64,000 bases of DNA from an uncultured Candidatus Saccharibacteria bacterium (lineage in GTDB: Bacteria; Patescibacteriota; Saccharimonadia; Saccharimonadales; CAYVSP01), in the NCBI GenBank assembly GCA_964584265.1, contig CAZOZI010000002.1, positions 2,340-66,339 of the forward strand, in the 5' to 3' direction. The translations under genes and the position numbers were made by a program. Shown piece by piece: positions 5,554-36,426 of this stretch. Numbering within the stretch: position 1 is the first letter of the stretch; the number at the start of each line of letters is the position of its first letter. The notes beneath the pieces were generated by a model. It was not told where the DNA came from. It made no database searches and worked only from the letters and a program-made list of their open reading frames with translations.

Positions 5554-6195
5554 TTAGCTCTGGCTTTTACGCCATTTGGCAATCTCAGCGTGGTTGCCGG
5601 TTAACAATACTTTTGGCACTTTCATGCCCTGAAAATCTTCTGGACGAGTGTATTGGGGAAACTCTACAGTTTTATCATCTTGTTGGAAGGACTCAATCTC
5701 TGTTGATGCTTCTCCGCCAAGCACTCCTGGCAATAACCGAATGACGCTATCAATAATCACCATTGCCGGTATTTCACCGCCGGTTAGCACATAGTTTCCT
5801 ATGCAGTATTGTTTATCCATCCATTTTGTAACCCGCTCATCATAGCCTTCGTAGCGTGCACATACTAGAATCATACCCTTGGATTTTGTGGCAAGATGCT
5901 TCGCATCGGATTGCTTGTATAGTTTGCCGCGCGGCGTAGGCAAAATAACTATGGCATCCGGATCATTGGCTTTGGCCTTCTCTATCGCAGCTGCTAGCGG
6001 TTCTGGCTTGAGTAACATACCATCGCCCCCGCCGTATGGTGTGTCGTCTACAGTTTTGCGTTTGCCCAAACCAAAATCACGCAAATTAATATAGCTAATA
6101 TTTACAATTTTGCGGTCCTGGGCTTTCCACAGCATGCTGGTATTGAGCACACCAGAAAACATATCTGGGAAAAGTGTAATTATTTGCACTTTCAT
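5554..6195 (-). CDS. trmD: tRNA (guanine37-N1)-methyltransferase
   Basis: MKVQIITLFPDMF...TPYGGGDGMLLKPEP...ARYEGYDERV are the TrmD signature regions. The start is moved to the MKVQ ATG at 6195 inside ORF 5554-6222. Confidence 0.9.
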   Translation of the reverse strand: MKVQIITLFPDMFSGVLNTSMLWKAQDRKIVNISYINLRDFGLGKRKTVDDTPYGGGDGMLLKPEPLAAAIEKAKANDPDAIVILPTPRGKLYKQSDAKHLATKSKGMILVCARYEGYDERVTKWMDKQYCIGNYVLTGGEIPAMVIIDSVIRLLPGVLGGEASTEIESFQQDDKTVEFPQYTRPEDFQGMKVPKVLLTGNHAEIAKWRKSQS

Positions 6196-6213
6196 TAAAA
6201 TTATTATACCAGA

Positions 6214-6242
6214 TATAAACAAAAAGAACCTCTATGAGGTTC
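6214..6242 (-). terminator. Intrinsic terminator/attenuator between the KH-protein gene and trmD
   Basis: Minus-strand RNA GAACCUC-AUA-GAGGUUC (7-bp stem, 6226-6242) followed by UUUUUGUUU. Confidence 0.5.
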
Positions 6243-6308
6243 ATTCTGTCACATAAAGCTCCCACCGTCAGTGGCTCGCAATGAGCTTTTCTATTTTTAA
6301 CTTGCTAA

Positions 6309-6791
6309 TTATACGTCTAAATCGTCTAATTCTTCAAGTTCTTTTCGAGTTTTGCTAACAACGTCGCTATGTTCATCTTCTTCTTGCTCAACTGCTGCAT
6401 TGGGCGTATCTTCATTTGCCTTGTCGTTATCGTCATCATCTGCATTGCTGTTTTCGTCGTTAGTAGATGAGCTAGCAGGTTGGCCGGCATCGTCATTTGA
6501 GGCTTCTACATCTCTGGGCTCGCTTCGCTCTGGCCGTGGTACTCCGTTATCGACGATTTTAAGATTATAACGAGCGTCATTCTTGGTACCAAGTGCTCGG
6601 AGCAGTGTACGTAAGCTTTGAGCTGTGGCACCACGCTTACCAATCACCCGCCCAAGATCTTCTGGGTCAACGGTGAGTTCAAGCAGCACACCTTTTTCAT
6701 CAATGCGGCGCTCAATTTTAACCTCATCTGGTTTACTAACAAGGGACTTAACGACGAATTCGACAAATTGTTGGTCAATAGTAGCACTCAT
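6309..6791 (-). CDS. KH-domain RNA-binding protein (YlqC/UPF0109-like) with a long acidic C-terminal tail
   Basis: VDPEDLGRVIGKRGATAQSLRTLL is the KH GXXG motif region. Conserved position between rpsP and trmD. Confidence 0.8.
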   Translation of the reverse strand: MSATIDQQFVEFVVKSLVSKPDEVKIERRIDEKGVLLELTVDPEDLGRVIGKRGATAQSLRTLLRALGTKNDARYNLKIVDNGVPRPERSEPRDVEASNDDAGQPASSSTNDENSNADDDDNDKANEDTPNAAVEQEEDEHSDVVSKTRKELEELDDLDV

Positions 6792-7561: not shown

Positions 7562-8272
7562 CTAGGAACTTAAGTTTTTGAAAGCTTGTTCGGCGGCGGC
7601 AACTTGGGCCGCTTGTTTACTTGGGCCCGTACCTTTGCCTTTGAGGTCATTATTAACATATACGCCAACTGTGAACACTTTGTCGTGATCAGGACCTTCC
7701 TCACTCATAACTCTATACACTGGCGTAAAGCCTTCACGACTTTGGACTAGTTCCTGCAATTGTGACTTTGGATCCTGCCACGAGCCTGACTCAAGAATAT
7801 CTTTGAACGTAATCACCAGGCTAGTCTCAATAAAGCGTTTGGCTTCGTCGTAGCCTTGGTCGATATAGATTGCTCCAACAACCGCTTCGTAACAGTTGGC
7901 CAGGATCTGTGCCCGTGCTCGCGGTGTGCCACGCTTTTCTCCGCGGCTTAAGCGCAGTAAAGGTTCAAACTCAAAACGGCTGGCTGCATCACTAATACTT
8001 TCCGTTCTCACTAAGGCACTACGCCAATTGGTCAATACCCCTTCTGGTTCGCTGTACGTAGTGTATAAATATTCAGTCACAATAAGTTCCAGCACAGCAT
8101 CACCCAGAAACTCCAGGCGCTCATTATGCTCTTTTACGGTCTTGCGATGTTCGTTAACGTAACTGCGATGCGTAAAGGCTGTAACAAGCAGCCCCAGATC
8201 ATGGAACTCAAGACCAAGTTTATCTTTGGCAAAAATACGATAGGTACTTACGTCTTGCATGTTTTGGCTCAC
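7562..8272 (-). CDS. rnc: Ribonuclease III
   Basis: NERLEFLGDAVLELIV is the RNase III signature. C-terminal dsRBD (PSKQAAQVAAAEQA). Confidence 0.9.
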   Translation of the reverse strand: MSQNMQDVSTYRIFAKDKLGLEFHDLGLLVTAFTHRSYVNEHRKTVKEHNERLEFLGDAVLELIVTEYLYTTYSEPEGVLTNWRSALVRTESISDAASRFEFEPLLRLSRGEKRGTPRARAQILANCYEAVVGAIYIDQGYDEAKRFIETSLVITFKDILESGSWQDPKSQLQELVQSREGFTPVYRVMSEEGPDHDKVFTVGVYVNNDLKGKGTGPSKQAAQVAAAEQAFKNLSS

Positions 8273-8766
8273 TTAGTTTGGCGAATTTTCTTAAGGCCAA
8301 GCAGGATTATTTTACCAATATCATCGTATTCGATTTTATCCAACGCTTCGGCAGCTGAAAACCACTTAATACCATTCATCCAATCCTCTGGTTTGAGTTT
8401 GTCGGTATCTCCTTGAGCATGTATCAGAAAAATTTCGGTCGTCATAAGTACCAAGCTAGTTGCCCGCCTATAACGAAAGTTAATTTTACCGAGCCAGCTC
8501 ATTACTTTCATCTGCTTTAGGCCTGTTTCTTCGCGGACTTCACGCTCAGCTGTATCACGGGCACTCTCGCCCTCTTCAATATGACCTTTGGGAATTGTCC
8601 AGCGGTTCTTGGCATCTTGAATAAGTAAAATCTGAACTTCTTTTGTCTTTGGGTGATTGCGAAACACGATACCGCCAGCGGTAGGTTCACGCACCACCTC
8701 GTTTATGGCTGGCCGGCGCCGCGATACGAACCGCTTGATGCCGCGAATTGGTTTAGGTCTCTTCAT
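8269..8766 (-). CDS. NUDIX hydrolase
   Basis: Nudix box GHIEEGESARDTAEREVREETGL. 4-nt overlap with the rnc start. Confidence 0.8.
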   Translation of the reverse strand: MKRPKPIRGIKRFVSRRRPAINEVVREPTAGGIVFRNHPKTKEVQILLIQDAKNRWTIPKGHIEEGESARDTAEREVREETGLKQMKVMSWLGKINFRYRRATSLVLMTTEIFLIHAQGDTDKLKPEDWMNGIKWFSAAEALDKIEYDDIGKIILLGLKKIRQTK

Positions 8767-9980: not shown

Positions 9981-12479
9981 CTAAATAACGAAGTTGACCA
10001 ATTTATTAGCAACAAAAATTGTCTTCTTTATGTTCTGATTTTTTAAGTAACCGGCCACTTTTTTATCAGCATGGGCTGCCTTTACAACTAGTTCTTCTGA
10101 GCTGTCATTTGCCAAGGATACATTAGCTCGAACTTTGCCATTCACTTGTACCACTATGGTGATCGTGTCATTGACAATATAGGCGTCATCCCAGATTGGC
10201 CAATGGTCTACATGTACGCTGTCTTCGTGACCAAATTTATGCCACAGCTCTTCGGCTGTGTGTGGAGCAAAAGGTGCAACTAACATAACTAAGCTCTCCA
10301 AACTATCCTGCCAGGTTTTTTTATCAGTAAATCCCTTGGTTTTGAATTTATAGAAATCATTGGTGCACTGCATCATGGCGGCAATCGCTGTGTTGTATTT
10401 TTGCGACTCTAGATCATCAGTTACTTTTTTGATTGTCCGGTCTATTGATTGCAACACATCCTCAGATTTTGCCGATTGACTTTGCTTAGTGTCATCTGTT
10501 AAAAATTCTTCTACCAAGTTCCATAAGCGTGACAAAAAGCGGTGTGTGCCTGGCACGCCCTGCGGATCCCAACGTACCCAGAGATCAAGTGGGGCAGCAA
10601 ACATTAAGTAAGTTCTCAATGCATCGGCGCCATAGCCTTGGTCAATTATTTCTAGTGGATCAACGCCGTTACCCTTACTTTTGCTGAACATTCGGCCGTC
10701 TTGGGCGGTAACTTTGCCGTTGAATAAGAACTTTTTGAAAGGTTCTGGATTATCTACTAGACCTTTTTTGTGTAAAAAGCTTGTTACAAAACGTGCATAT
10801 ATCATGTGGGCTGTTGCGTGATCCGCACCGTTATAAAAATCAATCGGCATCCATTTATTGACAATGTTACTTTCAAAAATCTTCAATGAGTTGTCTGGAT
10901 CAAAATAGCGCAGCATATACCAACTGCTGTCTATATAGGTATCAAGTGTGTCAGTTTCACGTTCACCCGGCTTACCACATTTTGGACAAGGCGCCTTTAG
11001 CCAGTCAGTTGCTCTGGCTAGTGCACTACGGCCATCACCGCTTGGTTCGTAGTCTTTAATCTCAGGCAAAACGACTGGTAGGTCTTTGTCGGGCACTAAC
11101 ACAGGACCGTGGTCTTTGCAGTAAATAATTGGAATGGGTGCGCCCCAGTAGCGTTGACGACTGATGCTCCAGTCTCTCATGCGATATGTAGTTACTCTTT
11201 TACCCATATCGTGCTTCACCATGTAATCCATAATTTTTTTTGTGGCCTCATGTATACCTAGGCCATTCAAAAAGTCAGAATTGATTATCTTGCCTGTTTC
11301 TTCTTGAACTTGAGATATATTAGTAATTGGAGAGTCGTCAGCATCTTCACCTACAACCACCCGTACAATAGGTAAGCCAAACTCTTCGGCAAATTCAAAG
11401 TCACGCACATCATGACCAGGCACACCGACGACTGCTCCTGTGCCAAAGCCAGACAACACAAAATCCGCTACCCATATAGGAAGTCTCTCGTTATTAAGTT
11501 TATTTACCGCATATAAACCAGTGAACACACCAGTCTTCTTACGGCCCTCTTGCTGTCGCTCAACTTCAGACTTGGCAAGAGCTTTCTTGATGTAGTTACC
11601 AACTTTTTGTGAATTATCTTCACCATCCTTTGACATAACTTTCTTCTCAACAACTTGGCGAGCAAGTTCATGCTCCGGTGAGAGCACAATAAAGGTAGCT
11701 CCAAAGTTAGTATCTGGTCTTGTGGTAAAGCAAGTTACTGCCGCTGCCTTGTTAGCATTGTCAACTTCATAGGTTATATTGATGCCGTGTTTACGGCCAA
11801 TCCAGTTTTTTTGCGCCAACTTAACGCTTTCCGTCCAATCCAAATCATCAGTTGCTTCTAATAATTCGTCAGCATAGTCAGTGATTTTAAAGAACCACTG
11901 CTTAACTTCCTTCTGAACCGCTGGTGGATCATCCGAGCCATCGTGGCGCCAGCATTTGCCATCAATAACTTGTTCATTGGCTAGTACGGTTTTATCGATT
12001 ACGCACCACCACTGTAAGCGAGTATCCTGATAGGCCAAACCGGCTCTGAACATCTCGGAAAATATCCATTGAGTCCATTTGTAGTAGGCAGGGTCGTGGG
12101 TGGCAATTTCTTTGCTCCAGTCATTGCTCCAACCCATCGCTTTGTATTGTTTATGATAATTAGGGATAATCGTGGCCATAGATTGCTGTGGAGAGACGCC
12201 TGCTTTTATGGCATAGTTTTCGGCCGGTAACCCAAAAGCATCCCAACCTACTGGATGATAGCTTTCGTATCCCTGCTGCCGTTTGAAACGAGCCAGCACA
12301 TCGCTAATGGTGTAATTCATAGCATGCCCTATGTGGATGCCTGCCCCGCTTGGGTAGTTAAACATGCTCATAGCAATATACTTAGGCTTTTTGCTCTGCA
12401 AGTTAGCCTTATAGGTCTGATGCTTATCCCAATATTTTTGCCAGCGCGGCTCAATATCTTTAGGATTATATCGTTTCAT
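9981..12479 (-). CDS. leuS: Leucyl-tRNA synthetase
   Basis: 832 aa with the HIGH-type motif (GIHIGHAMNY), KMSKS-type motif (RMFSKSKGN) and CP1 editing domain. Confidence 0.95.
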   Translation of the reverse strand: MKRYNPKDIEPRWQKYWDKHQTYKANLQSKKPKYIAMSMFNYPSGAGIHIGHAMNYTISDVLARFKRQQGYESYHPVGWDAFGLPAENYAIKAGVSPQQSMATIIPNYHKQYKAMGWSNDWSKEIATHDPAYYKWTQWIFSEMFRAGLAYQDTRLQWWCVIDKTVLANEQVIDGKCWRHDGSDDPPAVQKEVKQWFFKITDYADELLEATDDLDWTESVKLAQKNWIGRKHGINITYEVDNANKAAAVTCFTTRPDTNFGATFIVLSPEHELARQVVEKKVMSKDGEDNSQKVGNYIKKALAKSEVERQQEGRKKTGVFTGLYAVNKLNNERLPIWVADFVLSGFGTGAVVGVPGHDVRDFEFAEEFGLPIVRVVVGEDADDSPITNISQVQEETGKIINSDFLNGLGIHEATKKIMDYMVKHDMGKRVTTYRMRDWSISRQRYWGAPIPIIYCKDHGPVLVPDKDLPVVLPEIKDYEPSGDGRSALARATDWLKAPCPKCGKPGERETDTLDTYIDSSWYMLRYFDPDNSLKIFESNIVNKWMPIDFYNGADHATAHMIYARFVTSFLHKKGLVDNPEPFKKFLFNGKVTAQDGRMFSKSKGNGVDPLEIIDQGYGADALRTYLMFAAPLDLWVRWDPQGVPGTHRFLSRLWNLVEEFLTDDTKQSQSAKSEDVLQSIDRTIKKVTDDLESQKYNTAIAAMMQCTNDFYKFKTKGFTDKKTWQDSLESLVMLVAPFAPHTAEELWHKFGHEDSVHVDHWPIWDDAYIVNDTITIVVQVNGKVRANVSLANDSSEELVVKAAHADKKVAGYLKNQNIKKTIFVANKLVNFVI

Positions 12480-23709: not shown

Positions 23710-23730
23710 TGGTGGGCGAGGTGGGACTTG
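23710..23730 (-). repeat. 21-nt direct repeat of the tRNA-Leu(UAA) 3' end (att-like)
   Basis: tggtgggcgaggtgggacttg is identical at 23710-23730 and 23863-23883. The flanking bases differ on both sides. Confidence 0.85.
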
Positions 23731-23862
23731 CCTTGCCTTAAGGCAACTTCCGACATGCCACTGGCATTTCAGAAGCTTCGGGTCCGGGGAGTGCCACAGG
23801 CACTCCCGTTCAAGTCCCCCTGATCAGCTAAAATGCTCCACTTTTCAGTGAAACAATTTAGC

Positions 23863-23950
23863 TGGTGGGCGAGGTGGGACTTGAACCCACAAGGCTTATT
23901 CAGCCAACGGATTTTAAGTCCGTCGCGTATACCAATTCCGCCACTCGCCC
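23863..23950 (-). tRNA. tRNA-Leu (anticodon UAA), CCA encoded
   Basis: Type II tRNA: acceptor GGGCGAG/CUCGCCC, anticodon arm ACGGA-CUUAAAA-UCCGU, long variable arm GGCU-GAAUA-AGCC, T-arm GUGGG-UUCAAGU-CCCAC. Confidence 0.9.
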
Positions 23951-25433: not shown

Positions 25434-25509
25434 GCGGGTGTAGCTCAGCTGATAGAGCGCTTCCTTGCCAAGGAAGAGGCCAGGGGTTTAAGTCCCCTCA
25501 CCCGCACCA
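25434..25509 (+). tRNA. tRNA-Gly (anticodon GCC), CCA encoded
   Basis: Acceptor GCGGGUG/CACCCGC, anticodon arm CUUCC-UUGCCAA-GGAAG, T-arm AGGGG-UUUAAGU-CCCCU. The D-loop AGCUGAUA and T-loop UUU imply an A19:U56 elbow pair instead of G19:C56. Confidence 0.9.
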
Positions 25510-32093: not shown

Positions 32094-32909
32094 ATGAATA
32101 CACCCGTCATAATAGCCGCACATAATGAATCGGCAGGACTCGCTAAAACCCTTGATCGTCTTACGAATGATGTTGAGCCAATTGTAGTTGCAAATGGCTG
32201 TAACGATGATACTGCCGAAATTGCTCAGGCCTTCGGCGCCACCGTAATTGAGTTAGAGGAAAAGAGTAAAACACGAGCGATTCAATATGCTCTAGGATAT
32301 CTTGGTGATAGATCGCTCGAACCTGTGCTATTTTTGGATGCCGACACATACCCAATGAGCAGTAAATGGGCAACCATCATGACTCGGGCGGTAGACACTG
32401 CGGATATCACTCCAAGATTTTCATCAAGCGGAGCTTGGTTTAGGGATGGTAACAGTGTGTTATATGATGGTTTGAGAACAGTCCATTTTATCCAAAAAGT
32501 TATGCAAGCCCGCCGGGTAAAAACAGCTTTACCATCCGGCCGGAATATGGCAACTAGATTCAACTATGAAACACTAGATGCAGTTCTCAGTATGCCTGAT
32601 TATTGGCCCGGGGAAGATCAAGCCATTCGAGACATCATCGTCAAAGCGGGAGGTATAGCATTAGAGGTCATAAACCCCTTTGCTTATGCTATAACTACAG
32701 ACGATAGGGGCGTTGGTATACTGACACGTTTGGTTAAGGGTCCTGATTATGTTGCTCGCACTTATTGGGAAAGTTATTTGGCTGAAGCCCCGCGCGGTTC
32801 AGAACCCTATAATCCTCCATCATGGTATGTCGATAAACTCCAGAAACAGGAGGAAAATCTTGCTCTTACTTCGACTAATGTACAGCTTGGTGGGCGAGAG
32901 AGGACTTGA
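32094..32909 (+). CDS. Glycosyltransferase family 2
   Basis: MNTPVIIAAHNESAGLAKTLDRL...FLDADTYP (DXD-type). Trimmed from ORF 32028-32909, whose 5' part overlaps tRNA-Phe. The last 22 nt overlap the 3' end of the convergent tRNA-Leu(GAG). Confidence 0.7.
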   Translation: MNTPVIIAAHNESAGLAKTLDRLTNDVEPIVVANGCNDDTAEIAQAFGATVIELEEKSKTRAIQYALGYLGDRSLEPVLFLDADTYPMSSKWATIMTRAVDTADITPRFSSSGAWFRDGNSVLYDGLRTVHFIQKVMQARRVKTALPSGRNMATRFNYETLDAVLSMPDYWPGEDQAIRDIIVKAGGIALEVINPFAYAITTDDRGVGILTRLVKGPDYVARTYWESYLAEAPRGSEPYNPPSWYVDKLQKQEENLALTSTNVQLGGRERT

Positions 32910-32973
32910 ACCTCCAAACCTTTCGGCACTACCACCTCAAGGTAGCGTGTTTACCAAATTTCACCACTCGCCC
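32888..32973 (-). tRNA. tRNA-Leu (anticodon GAG), CCA encoded
   Basis: Type II tRNA: acceptor GGGCGAG/CUCGCCC, anticodon arm CUACC-UUGAGGU-GGUAG, long variable arm, T-arm GGAGG-UUCAAGU-CCUCU. Confidence 0.9.
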
Positions 32974-32982
32974 GACAAAGTA

Positions 32983-33630
32983 CTATTTAGCATACGGATC
33001 TGTCGCAAAAACTTCAAGATATCTTTGTCGTTTTCGATGTAGACAAAGCACAGTGTCATTGTAGTACATAAAATTAAATAATTTACGTGAATCATGCTTC
33101 GCATAACTTAGTTGGTATGTACCCTTTCCTGAGAAACGTATACTCCCCTCAACTTCAGGAAGATTCAGCGATATCTTTAATTGTAACCATTTCAAAAAAG
33201 GCAGGCTTGCGCAAACAAAACTAGTATAAAACATGTAACTATTTTTCCATCTTTTATCCCAAACTCCATAAATACAGCCATCCCCATCAAAGTACCCCCT
33301 TAGAAAGTCTGCAAAAAAATCTGACGGTATTTCAATCTCACTTATAGTTAGGCTCTTATTCTGAGTTAATCCTATGGATAAAAGAAAATCGTAAAATGCA
33401 ACATCACCGAATTGAACACGGTAACAAGGTAACCCCGAGCCATTGAACTTAATACCAACTTTAACACTGGGGCGTATGGTATCTCTGAATAACGTGGCAA
33501 GCTGTATGTCCTTAGATGTAAAATCGATATGCCTATTATCATTTAGCAAGCAACCGTCAGCTGTAATAAGTCCAACTATATATGCTAAACTTTCGCTCCA
33601 TTTATAGATTTGACGTGCCTTATACCTCAT
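32983..33630 (-). mobile_element. Free-standing LAGLIDADG homing endonuclease gene (215 aa, two-motif monomeric type)
   Basis: Two LAGLIDADG motifs, LAYIVGLITADGCL and FLRGYFDGDGCI. GGAGGG Shine-Dalgarno. Sits between tRNA-Leu(GAG) and tRNA-Val(UAC). Confidence 0.85.
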
Positions 33631-33680: not shown

Positions 33681-33757
33681 GGGCGATTAGCTCAGTTGGC
33701 TAGAGCACCTCGTTTACACCGAGGGGGTCGTAGGTTCGAGTCCTTCATCGCCCACCA
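33681..33757 (+). tRNA. tRNA-Val (anticodon UAC), CCA encoded
   Basis: Acceptor GGGCGAU/AUCGCCC, anticodon arm CCUCG-UUUACAC-CGAGG, T-loop UUCGAGU. One U-U mismatch in the T-stem. Confidence 0.85.
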
Positions 33758-35773: not shown

Positions 35774-36190
35774 TTAGATGCCTATAGCCCACCGTTTTTG
35801 TTCGAAAAAGTCTGCTTCCTCCTGCCATGTTAAAAGGTCAGCAAGATTGTCAGGGGCAACCCAATTAGCTTCTACTACATCACTAGCCAAAGGACAAAGC
35901 GCTATCTCACCAGTAATACAGAAAAACATATCAATATGCTTTTTTACTGAAGGGAATCGATCATTGTTAGCCGTAAATCCCATCCGCGACACAAGGCCGA
36001 GATAGCATATAACTTCTATTCTAGTAAGGCCGCTTTCTTCGTGTATCTCCCGAAGAGCATTCTCTTCTGGTGTCTCTCCTGTTTCGCGCTCTCCTTTAGG
36101 AAAAGTATGTTTACCAATTTGATTAGTAACAACTAGAACCTGTCTATTTGGATTAAGCACAATCCCGCCGGCAGATGTTATATGTCTCAT
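35774..36190 (-). CDS. NUDIX hydrolase
   Basis: Nudix box PKGERETGETPEENALREIHEESGL. Confidence 0.8.
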   Translation of the reverse strand: MRHITSAGGIVLNPNRQVLVVTNQIGKHTFPKGERETGETPEENALREIHEESGLTRIEVICYLGLVSRMGFTANNDRFPSVKKHIDMFFCITGEIALCPLASDVVEANWVAPDNLADLLTWQEEADFFEQKRWAIGI

Positions 36191-36207: not shown

Positions 36208-36225
36208 TGGTGCGCGAGAGAGGAC
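36208..36225 (-). repeat. 18-nt direct repeat of the tRNA-Leu(CAG) 3' end (att-like)
   Basis: tggtgcgcgagagaggac is identical at 36208-36225 and 36340-36357. Confidence 0.85.
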
Positions 36226-36339
36226 AGCGCTCCGGCTTTGCGCGGAGCTAACCTCCTCGTTCGCTGACGCTCACTTCATGGAGCTTCAAGAATCTATCAT
36301 ACCAGTCCTACTTCCGACCACAAGGGTCTGAACTAGGAC

Positions 36340-36426
36340 TGGTGCGCGAGAGAGGACTTGAACCTCCATGAACCGAAGTCCACTAGCTCCTGAAGCTAGC
36401 GCGTCTACCAATTCCGCCACTCGCGC
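36340..36426 (-). tRNA. tRNA-Leu (anticodon CAG), CCA encoded
   Basis: Type II tRNA: acceptor GCGCGAG/CUCGCGC, anticodon arm CUAGC-UUCAGGA-GCUAG, long variable arm, T-loop UUCAAGU. Confidence 0.9.

Follow-up and report, generated by a model that had tools for sequence, protein, structure and literature searches.

A recurrent tRNA 3′-end module behind tRNA-Leu genes in Saccharibacteria and some other bacteria

In a stretch of 64,000 nucleotides (nt) from an uncultured Candidatus Saccharibacteria bacterium (contig CAZOZI010000002.1; hereafter the window), the last 18 nt of a tRNA-Leu(CAG) gene are repeated downstream of the gene, beyond a 114-nt insert. Repeat and insert together are one copy of a recurrent tRNA 3′-end module, a small and apparently undescribed non-coding unit found after tRNA genes (chiefly those for tRNA-Leu) in Saccharibacteria and certain other bacteria. 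A full-text literature search aimed at this architecture found no description of it. The architecture recurs across genomes, the central part of the insert (the core) is conserved in families with a covarying, tRNA-sense structure, and related loci differ in copy number; the module has no coding capacity and no recombinase lies nearby. We tentatively favour the view, at a little under an even chance, that the cores form a superfamily of small, non-coding, non-autonomous selfish elements living in redundant partial copies of tRNAs.

Nine tRNA genes were found in the window by ARAGORN. tRNA-Leu(CAG) is intact, encodes its CCA and scores 56.7 bits against the Rfam tRNA model; since ARAGORN and Rfam place the gene at 36340–36426 on the minus strand, 36340–36357 is its true 3′ end. 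The duplication had been described in a first-pass annotation of the window, and TGGTGCGCGAGAGAGGAC indeed occurs exactly at 36208–36225 and 36340–36357, 132 nt from start to start. On the tRNA strand the repeat reads GTCCTCTCTCGCGCACCA and matches tRNA positions 59–76 (hand-counted from the tRNA sequence), comprising the last two T-loop bases, the 3′ strand of the T stem, the 3′ strand of the acceptor, the discriminator base and CCA. Chance can be dismissed as its origin, as about 3e-8 exact 18-mers are expected within 2 kb and the best of the shuffled 18-mer queries still had 5 mismatches. A second, degenerate tRNA gene in the spacer was also rejected: ARAGORN and Rfam detected none on either strand, and plus-strand tRNA similarity is confined to a 16-nt inverted copy of the T-arm region. 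The repeat begins exactly at position 59, directly 3′ of A58, which gives 18 nt. Retroviruses copy a stretch of the same length from their tRNA primer, a coincidence that might be a lead.

Read along the tRNA strand (minus for all features of this module), the order is tRNA, a hairpin that pairs with the tRNA's ACCA, the inverted T-arm copy, a core that we call alpha, and the exact 18-nt copy. The 3′ region of the tRNA is present three times, direct, inverted and direct. The proximal repeat (R1, 36340–36357) is followed directly by the first hairpin (H1, 36301–36343), whose 19-nt arms (36301–36319 and 36325–36343) are 89% complementary. The H1 stem takes in the ACCA (36340–36343), all four nt of which are paired in the folds with TGGT (36301–36304). 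Because H1 has no U-run in the window it is not terminator-like, and terminator prediction gave none there. Next comes a 10-nt linker (36291–36300, ATGATAGATT) at the position expected for the acceptor part of the inverted copy, to which no similarity was seen in the window sequence. The inverted copy (36275–36290, CTTGAAGCTCCATGAA) is complementary at 15 of 16 positions (94%) to 36357–36372, the tRNA segment TTCATGGAGGTTCAAG, and covers the 3′ end of the variable arm, the 5′ strand of the T stem and the T loop. It has a counterpart 44–62 nt after the tRNA in every module.

The alpha core (36226–36274) runs GTGAGC..AGCGAACGA, then GGAGGTT, then the hairpin AGCTCCGCGCAAAGCCGGAGCGCT. Its 5′ part (36257–36274) is GTGAGCGTCAGCGAACGA, its middle (36250–36256, GGAGGTT) equals the T-stem 5′ strand plus two loop bases, and its 3′ part (36226–36249) is the 24-nt hairpin. 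The distal exact copy (R2, 36208–36225) follows. Both the single-sequence fold and an RNAalifold consensus of nine alpha copies join core and R2 in one long irregular hairpin (36215–36259), in which the partner of CGAGGAGG is CCTC(T)CTCG, made up of the T-stem 3′ strand and the first four nt of the acceptor 3′ strand. In the fold the last seven nt, CGCACCA, are left as a single-stranded 3′ tail, and the third copy is a T arm with extra structure in place of its loop. The first-pass annotation had named two hairpins, which are both present in the minimum-free-energy fold of spacer and repeat (z = −4.0). That annotation lacked the GGAGG ahead of the distal repeat, which re-forms a T-stem-like helix with R2, and also the inverted T-arm copy and the fact that ACCA pairs into the first hairpin. 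tRNA-Leu(CAG) and its trailer together fold far better than shuffled sequences (z = −6.3).

Two further candidates within the module were tried and rejected. One was an independent promoter before the inverted copy: TGGTATGAT resembles an extended −10, but there was no enrichment over 35 modules (4 matches to the −10-like motif, as against 3 in shuffled sequence), and pairing with ACCA is a better explanation for the TGGT than a promoter motif. The other was a full minihelix, in which all of R2's acceptor strand would find its partner in cis. Alpha pairs only four of the acceptor bases, and in the beta cores introduced below such a partner is ruled out because identical cores in one locus (L021) adjoin different acceptors.

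That the same geometry exists at a second tRNA-Leu gene was also borne out, so that two of the three tRNA-Leu genes in the window carry it. The tRNA-Leu(TAA) module (23710–23950, minus strand) consists of the tRNA (23863–23950), a 132-nt spacer and a 21-nt exact copy of the tRNA 3′ end (23710–23730). The spacer contains a hairpin, an inverted T-loop copy (23808–23820) and a delta-like core, and folds with z = −6.7; an 8-bp closing helix joins the inverted T-loop copy to the start of the 21-nt copy. The hairpin GGGAGTGCC-TGT-GGCACTCCC matches a conserved hairpin of the gamma and delta cores. The suggestion that tRNA-Gly (25434–25509) shows a longer version of the same arrangement did not hold: with as many as 3 mismatches allowed in 19 nt, the whole window contains no copy of its 3′ end. 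Between tRNA-Gly and tRNA-Phe lie 6.5 kb that include low GC (0.41–0.42 at 24–28 kb) and six open reading frames (ORFs) without a Pfam match, and that may be an island of some other kind.

To survey other species we searched one genome per species with the D and anticodon arms of the window tRNA, which gave at least 119 loci, most of them from Patescibacteria. The material compared comprises the 64-kb window and loci of 8–14 kb, about 2 Mb of fetched DNA; L numbers are the locus labels of this analysis, and the names and boundaries of the core families are informal and were set in it. Ten tRNA genes, among 270 tRNAs in these loci and the window, have a copy of their own last 15 nt (exact or with one mismatch) 117–171 nt downstream. 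They are tRNA-Leu(CAG) in the window, L021, L048, L109 and L089 (a Parcubacteria genome), tRNA-Leu(GAG) in L021 and L076, tRNA-Leu(TAA) in the window and L011, and tRNA-Val in L028. In all ten the copy agrees with the local acceptor sequence, whichever that is. Decayed versions were seen in L017, L038, L072, L087, L097 and L105. Presence is sporadic (about 5–8% of 84 tRNA-Leu(CAG) loci with enough downstream sequence, among the matches listed), and different core families occur at the same orthologous site.

Metagenomes were searched with a pattern that runs from the T arm through ACCA and, after 38–66 nt, to CTTGAASC, giving at least 122 matches on at least 120 contigs. The genes among the matches listed include 64 tRNA-Leu(CAG), 23 tRNA-Leu(GAG), 18 tRNA-Leu(TAG) and 8 tRNA-Pro. 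An exact 10–23-nt copy of the local 3′ end lies 95–430 nt downstream in 46 of the 122 matches listed, and most of the others are decayed modules. Most contigs can be assigned to Saccharibacteria because their flanks are again a solute-binding protein and an FAD oxidase. One large group, with acceptor CCTGGGC, comes from Porticoccaceae (SAR92 clade, marine Gammaproteobacteria), and the architecture therefore reaches beyond Patescibacteria. Porticoccaceae arrays carry a 16-nt copy of the tRNA-Leu(CAG) 3′ end (L162, L171, L188, L189, L203, L205, L242, L246 and L271); a terminator-like hairpin of its own closes their core, and each unit brings a further copy of the 58 nt that follow the tRNA. The geometry had been put down to a systematic process rather than coincidence, and its recurrence at tRNA-Leu, tRNA-Val and tRNA-Pro genes in Patescibacteria, metagenome contigs and Porticoccaceae agrees with this. 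Rather than duplications confined to the window's loci with unconserved spacers, the opposite was found, the spacers being conserved in families.

We distinguish cores alpha to epsilon. Alpha is found in the window, L109, L165, L166 (two tandem copies), L227, L258, L232 and L276, and beta in L011, L021 (two copies), L028, L087 and L217. Gamma, about 90 nt long with the ends GTGAG...GTGAC, occurs in L017, L076, L113, L115, L181, L184, L186, L191, L193, L198, L200 and L221. Delta is represented by about 30 copies, with the window's Leu(TAA) module delta-like, and epsilon belongs to Porticoccaceae. Alpha stands at CAG, GAG and TAG isoacceptors; delta is found at Leu genes, at Pro genes and also where the tRNA has another T loop. 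Where the T loop is TTCGAG, the delta inverted copy reads CTCGAAC instead of CTTGAAC, and in L214, L168, L164, L175 and L211 the inverted copy extends into the local acceptor bases, so that inverted and direct copies both follow the local tRNA.

The structures of these cores are supported by covariation. Three helices with 35 pairs in all are common to eleven gamma copies, 97.4% of cells are paired and 21 of the pairs have compensatory changes; none of 500 shuffles equalled this, sliding the partners by 1–3 columns reduced pairing to 29–44%, and one G-U pair is invariant. In the first hairpin of delta, five of eight pairs show double changes. A hairpin common to gamma, delta and epsilon has 23 G-T or T-G against 4 A-C or C-A combinations in 65 unique copies, an asymmetry from which it follows that it is the tRNA-sense strand that folds, in the form of RNA or of single-stranded DNA. 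The alpha consensus pairs CG(R)GGAGG with CCTC(T)CTCG of R2 and continues into the core hairpin. Three of its 17 pairs have double changes, one of which tracks the acceptor change from CTCG to CTTG in L232; covariation support for alpha is modest because its members are few and fairly similar. Rfam scans by gathering threshold and by E-value (the window and 15 loci) matched only tRNAs and spurious miRNA precursors, the latter falling on the long palindrome of R1, H1 and inverted copy. A known RNA family was rejected on this basis, and the same scans gave no match of the cores to an intron or ribozyme model.

Conservation was examined most closely between the window and L165. Their alpha cores are identical at 60 of 70 aligned positions and their tRNAs at 78 of 88, beside 57% identity for the FAD oxidase and 38% for the solute-binding protein, which puts the conservation of the core above what neutral change would predict. 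A derived CTTGAAGCTCC variant is common to both: the tRNA predicts AACCTCC for the inverted copy, which instead reads AAGCTCC. R2 differs between them just as the acceptors do (CGC versus CCC). In L165 (9655–9880) tRNA-Leu(CAG) and the alpha module are inverted, relative to the window, against the flanking solute-binding-protein and FAD-oxidase genes.

Across modules the parts have fared differently. Among the 34 unique modules whose exact R2 measures 15 nt or more, identity in the inverted copy's acceptor part is at random level (median 3 of 11); L214 and L168 are among the few that still carry this part. The hairpins after R1 (H1) and R2 (H2) share a median of 24 of 40 positions and are near-identical in only 7–8 pairs. 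As R2 is exact while the inverted acceptor part is random, R2 must be kept or regenerated and is not merely left to decay. R2 is 15–23 nt long across modules and starts anywhere from tRNA position 54 to 61, and its start is complementary to the inverted T-arm copy over 8 nt in delta and Leu(TAA) modules and over 1–2 nt in the window's alpha module. H1 is terminator-like ahead of 23 of 35 modules, and H2 is terminator-like after 18 of 35. All four ACCA bases are paired into H1 in 10 of 26 modules and in 5 of 61 module-free tRNA-Leu genes.

Cores also vary in number and position. In L021 an identical 116-nt block stands behind tRNA-Leu(GAG) and tRNA-Leu(CAG), 2 kb apart; the upstream hairpins differ, and each block is followed by the acceptor sequence of its own tRNA. 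One locus can hold two or three cores, from a single family or from several, and different families are present together in L113, L166, L181, L186 and L226. Tandem arrays were found in L166, L175, L189, L198 and L223; L175 and L223 are 96.5% identical and both have arrays, and between L203 and L271, at 99.6% identity, the difference is one module unit. In a pattern that resembles insertion, gamma sits in the T loop, in the anticodon loop (L113) or at the junction of D arm and anticodon stem (L186) of pseudo-tRNAs, and gamma nested in gamma is seen in L113 and L200, which have these double-gamma units in common. Pseudo-tRNA-Leu copies with two or three gamma cores lie beside the intact gene in L113 (minus strand, 5680–6440 and 7780–7940) and L186 (2680–3330).

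Every core lies in a partial tRNA copy that adjoins an intact tRNA, and never in a complete sole tRNA gene. In mirror-image cases (L113, L115, L181, L186 and L191) the partial copy is instead a pseudo-copy of the first ~64 nt of the tRNA behind the native promoter, often identical to the real gene at 64 of 64 positions, with the core in its T loop. A short remnant follows, then the inverted T-loop motif CTTGAACC, about 17 nt and the intact tRNA. Two loci stand apart from these forms. L236 (1–120) has a convergent pair of identical tRNA-Leu(CAG) genes with one bidirectional terminator, an undecayed form of tRNA, hairpin and inverted 3′ end. At tRNA-Val in L227 (2250–3590, minus strand) two ORFs (one of 89 aa and a NUDIX-like one of 166 aa) make up a 1.1-kb cassette between 20-nt direct repeats, ACCAAAAATAAAAGGCCAAG, which consist of ACCA and the left arm of the terminator; after the cassette comes a module whose copy of the tRNA 3′ end is 17 nt long.

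We infer that the cores may be mobile, and selfish rather than of use to the host. This view is favoured because a simple integrase scar fails several of the tests that define one and an inversion duplication leaves the shared, covarying cores unexplained. The cores would spread or multiply at tRNA genes, and the working tRNA would survive since its 3′ end, or its 5′ part in the mirror-image cases, is duplicated. As for how the target is copied, we further infer that the direct-inverted-direct frame probably arises by template switching or recombination at two hairpins, the terminator-like one and the T arm, while arrays probably grow and shrink by recombination between their repeats. Of the two processes offered in the first-pass annotation, the second, a family of miniature elements that mimic tRNA 3′ ends, is the better fit.

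Several observations weigh against the selfish-element reading. Both the inverted copy and R2 match the local tRNA, in some cases including acceptor bases, and we know of no transposition chemistry that yields copies matching the local tRNA. No transposase, integrase or reverse transcriptase was found in the window and the 8–14-kb loci, no solitary core away from tRNAs was seen in the ~2 Mb of fetched DNA, and no pair of filled and empty alleles from close relatives of the window was found. The alpha core is tiny, with only nine copies found. The metagenome sample is biased towards the inverted copy because the pattern demanded one particular T arm together with an inverted T-loop copy. Finally, an exact R2 beside a random inverted acceptor part and an H2 often unlike H1 looks like selection on R2, which favours function.

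Function is the substance of the most serious rival, to which we give a minority chance: the module would be an RNA that mimics a tRNA end, a tRNA 3′ trailer or small RNA useful to the host. Its 5′ part would be antisense to the T arm, and its 3′ part a T-stem/acceptor-like helix ending in a single-stranded NCCA tail. Such an RNA could be a decoy, sensor or processing signal for RNase P, 3′ exonucleases, the CCA-adding enzyme, LeuRS or toxins that act on acceptor ends, and the window module would also be the 5′ leader of the mRNA of the NUDIX gene next to it. Besides the exactness of R2 in the 34 unique modules relative to the inverted acceptor and to H1/H2, this reading accounts for the alpha hairpin, which pairs the T stem and four acceptor bases of R2 and in L232 has a pair that changes together with the acceptor. 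The strong covariation and strand-specific wobble pairs are as expected of RNA; the alpha core is as conserved as the tRNA (86% versus 89%) where proteins are 38–57% identical; and full pairing of ACCA into H1 is commoner with a module than without. Read-through into module and NUDIX gene is plausible because the window H1 has no U-run. Yet the module is present at a small minority of tRNA-Leu genes, with many copies decayed or truncated, and the same place is taken by no fewer than five unrelated core families. Terminator-like hairpins precede 23 of 35 modules and −10-like motifs are not enriched, beta, gamma and delta lack a conserved partner for the acceptor part of R2, and Rfam holds no match.

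An integrase footprint appears improbable. Here R1 and R2 would be attL and attR cores of a site-specific recombinase acting on the T loop and 3′ end of tRNA genes, the 115–200-nt intervals would be deletion remnants or gene-less, cis-mobilisable mini-elements for which the mobilising enzyme acts in trans, and arrays would form by tandem accretion. Known elements that target tRNA or tmRNA genes include those of P4-type and Ms6 integrases and the Dehalococcoides ssrA genomic islands with tandem 20-bp repeats (PMC1762012, PMC3146451). As in their attL/attR arrangement, the modules have a direct repeat of the last ~16–23 nt of the gene starting in the T loop, an intact gene, tandem repeats downstream in some cases with changes in copy number, and tRNA-Leu, a common target. 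The window repeat itself, 18 of 18 identical from position 59, begins in or near the T loop, and the two-gene cassette between 20-nt repeats at tRNA-Val in L227 also speaks for an integrase. The repeat alone thus resembles an att core, yet a simple integrase scar is contradicted in several defining respects (cf. PMC3146451). Modules are units of ~115–200 nt without recombinase or cargo, and their between-repeat intervals are too short for genes or classical attP arms. There is no fixed crossover, the start of R2 varying between modules over positions 54–61, and covarying hairpins and an inverted T-arm copy are not att features. An element importing its own tRNA 3′ end cannot yield the arrangement in L021, where the cores are identical and the proximal acceptors different.

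Searches for the enzymes and for phage forms bear on the same question. Pfam annotation of the 60 window ORFs gave none of the enzymes sought (integrase, transposase, reverse transcriptase), the only mobile-element-type protein in the window being a LAGLIDADG ORF (32983–33630). Around 88 modules, 221 ORFs lie within 3 kb, and the families that recur among them likewise include none of the three. The tRNA 3′ 25-mer GGTTCAAGTCCTCTCTCGCGCACCA had no match in the 2.9 million viral contigs of IMG/VR (plasmids and conjugative elements not searched), so that a phage attP was ruled out. Viral matches to the gamma-hairpin pattern (36) were rejected as chance, all lying in coding sequence without the hairpin. 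With no recombinase near, no phage attP and no genes between the repeats, the other process proposed in the first-pass annotation, repeated integration and excision by a tRNA-targeting recombinase, finds no support.

It is also hardly likely that the modules are purely mutational by-products. A tandem inversion duplication would arise by replication snap-back at the hairpin after the tRNA and then at the T-arm hairpin; copies would be trimmed by deletions and amplified by unequal recombination, and the cores would be old native trailer with neither mobility nor function. As cited in PMC3857721, such a snap-back mechanism has been described for Salmonella (Kugelberg et al. 2010, Genetics 185:65). 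It shares with the modules the direct-inverted-direct order, hairpin junctions, trimming of the inverted copy and amplification of arrays, but it is reportedly a one-off mutational event under laboratory selection, and the junction here holds covarying core families common to distant genomes. Both junctions do lie at hairpins (R1-H1-(TGGT..A)-core-R2), with TGGT directly after the H1 stem. The 7–8 modules with H2 near-identical to H1, the local acceptor bases in the inverted copy of L214, L168, L175, L211 and L164, the intact convergent tRNA pair with a common terminator in L236 and the variable copy number of arrays are all in keeping with this mechanism. It does not explain why the same core family is found at different tRNA genes and in distant hosts, why junction sequence is not all local, why gamma occupies three positions in pseudo-tRNAs, why covariation is strong, or why cores are 86% identical beside proteins at 38–57%. 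Snap-back at the T arm also predicts an inverted copy abutting the acceptor strand, which is not seen.

Other small elements offer partial parallels. MITEs (miniature transposable elements with inverted repeats), the palindrome-associated elements derived from IS200/IS605, and repetitive extragenic palindromes (REP) with their mosaic forms (BIME) are, like the modules, ~100–200 nt long, non-coding, rich in hairpins and strand-asymmetric, and occur in multiple copies and families, nested and in tandem. Unlike them, the modules are strictly tied to tRNA genes with no solitary copies seen, are flanked by target copies of 16–23 nt (direct) and 8–21 nt (inverted), and have no cognate transposase identified. 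MITEs have a short target duplication of fixed length, whereas the flanking repeat here is 15–23 nt and, with its hairpin, reaches 57–67 nt in L076, L175 and L198. Elements of the IS200/IS605 or REP type insert without duplication 3′ of a 4–5-nt motif, whereas a long target duplication is always present in the modules. Hairpins are present in the modules, with 23 G-T against 4 A-C combinations, and nothing connects them to a Y1 transposase.

Two RNA systems are also reminiscent of the cores. Non-canonical archaeal tRNA introns and the group III introns of Euglena plastids, with their twintrons, are a lead in that gamma is ~90 nt, lies at the junction of D arm and anticodon stem, in the anticodon loop or in the T loop, can be nested and has the ends GUGAG...GUGAC. 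Unlike in such introns, an intact tRNA is always adjacent, the interrupted copy lacks the acceptor 3′ or 5′ part, removal of the core does not restore an exact tRNA, and no splicing machinery or ribozyme family was matched. Acceptor/T-arm minihelices, viral tRNA-like structures and mascRNA-type processing signals resemble the predicted helix of alpha and R2, which consists of the T stem and part of the acceptor stem with a free ...ACCA tail identical to that of tRNA-Leu. It differs from them in having only 4 of 7 acceptor pairs and an extended helix in place of the T loop, and the other families pair R2 differently.

A bolder proposal, which we consider rather unlikely, is that cores alpha to epsilon would be a new class of small RNA-structured, intron- or retroelement-like elements aimed at tRNA loops. 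They would invade the D region, the anticodon loop or the T loop and persist because a fresh copy of the 3′ end is made next to them; the tRNA itself might be the template, given repeat starts at positions 54–59 and, in the window, exactly at 59, with the 18 nt known from retroviral priming. Alternatively, the product would be a new RNA that mimics the tRNA acceptor and has a cellular role. Either way they would represent an unrecognised kind of tRNA-linked element in Patescibacteria and marine Gammaproteobacteria.

The genomic setting of the window module is that of its relatives except for one gene. Its tRNA and gene order (solute-binding protein, tRNA-Leu(CAG), FAD-linked oxidase) match metagenome-assembled genomes of Saccharibacteria (Saccharimonadales) at 64–72% nt identity, the best being ~72% over 569 nt. 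The NUDIX gene (35774–36190, minus strand; 138 aa, Pfam NUDIX 1.1e-15) has its ATG at 36190, 17 nt after R2, just as had been noted from the sequence. It is missing from the interval between tRNA-Leu(CAG) and FAD oxidase at all other loci, where the oxidase promoter and gene follow the tRNA directly, and is judged from this comparison to be a lineage-specific neighbour outside the module. We rejected NUDIX as linked cargo, since the window and L227 proteins share only the Nudix box and the window gene is unique to its lineage. An exact look-up of the NUDIX protein returned one identical 1.4-kb contig in a public read-set assembly, and the same look-ups for the FAD oxidase and solute-binding protein returned no match. 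The window has another NUDIX gene at 8269–8766, and genes for leucyl-tRNA synthetase (9981–12479) and RNase III (7562–8272) lie in the same window as the two tRNA-Leu modules.

The LAGLIDADG ORF (LAGLIDADG_3, 32983–33630, minus strand) is free-standing between tRNA-Val (33681–33757, plus strand) and tRNA-Leu(GAG) (32888–32973, minus strand). Homologues with 42–46% identity are similarly placed in L044, L087 (frameshifted), L096, L097, L212 and L227. Among the other Saccharibacteria loci examined, tRNA-Leu(GAG) and tRNA-Val form a same-strand tandem 12–22 nt apart in L004, L009, L016, L021 and L064, and the LAGLIDADG gene therefore accompanies a rearrangement. The endonuclease was rejected as the agent of module formation, as it lies between tRNA-Val and tRNA-Leu(GAG) in 7 loci with no clear module association.

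Partial tRNA copies are usually taken as integrase footprints, and here there is no integrase, cargo or phage counterpart. A compact, folded, family-conserved unit reproduces the tRNA 3′ end in two orientations, which is relevant to genome annotation and to filters for tRNA fragments. The gamma core, with 35 pairs, compensatory changes at 21 of them and no Rfam match, is a candidate structured RNA. If the modules are expressed, organisms whose RNA-processing machinery is minimal would have in them a new mimic of the tRNA end. Should the cores be mobile, they would reveal a new route by which tiny elements colonise essential genes without killing them, and a possible model for how tRNA genes gain insertions and split forms.

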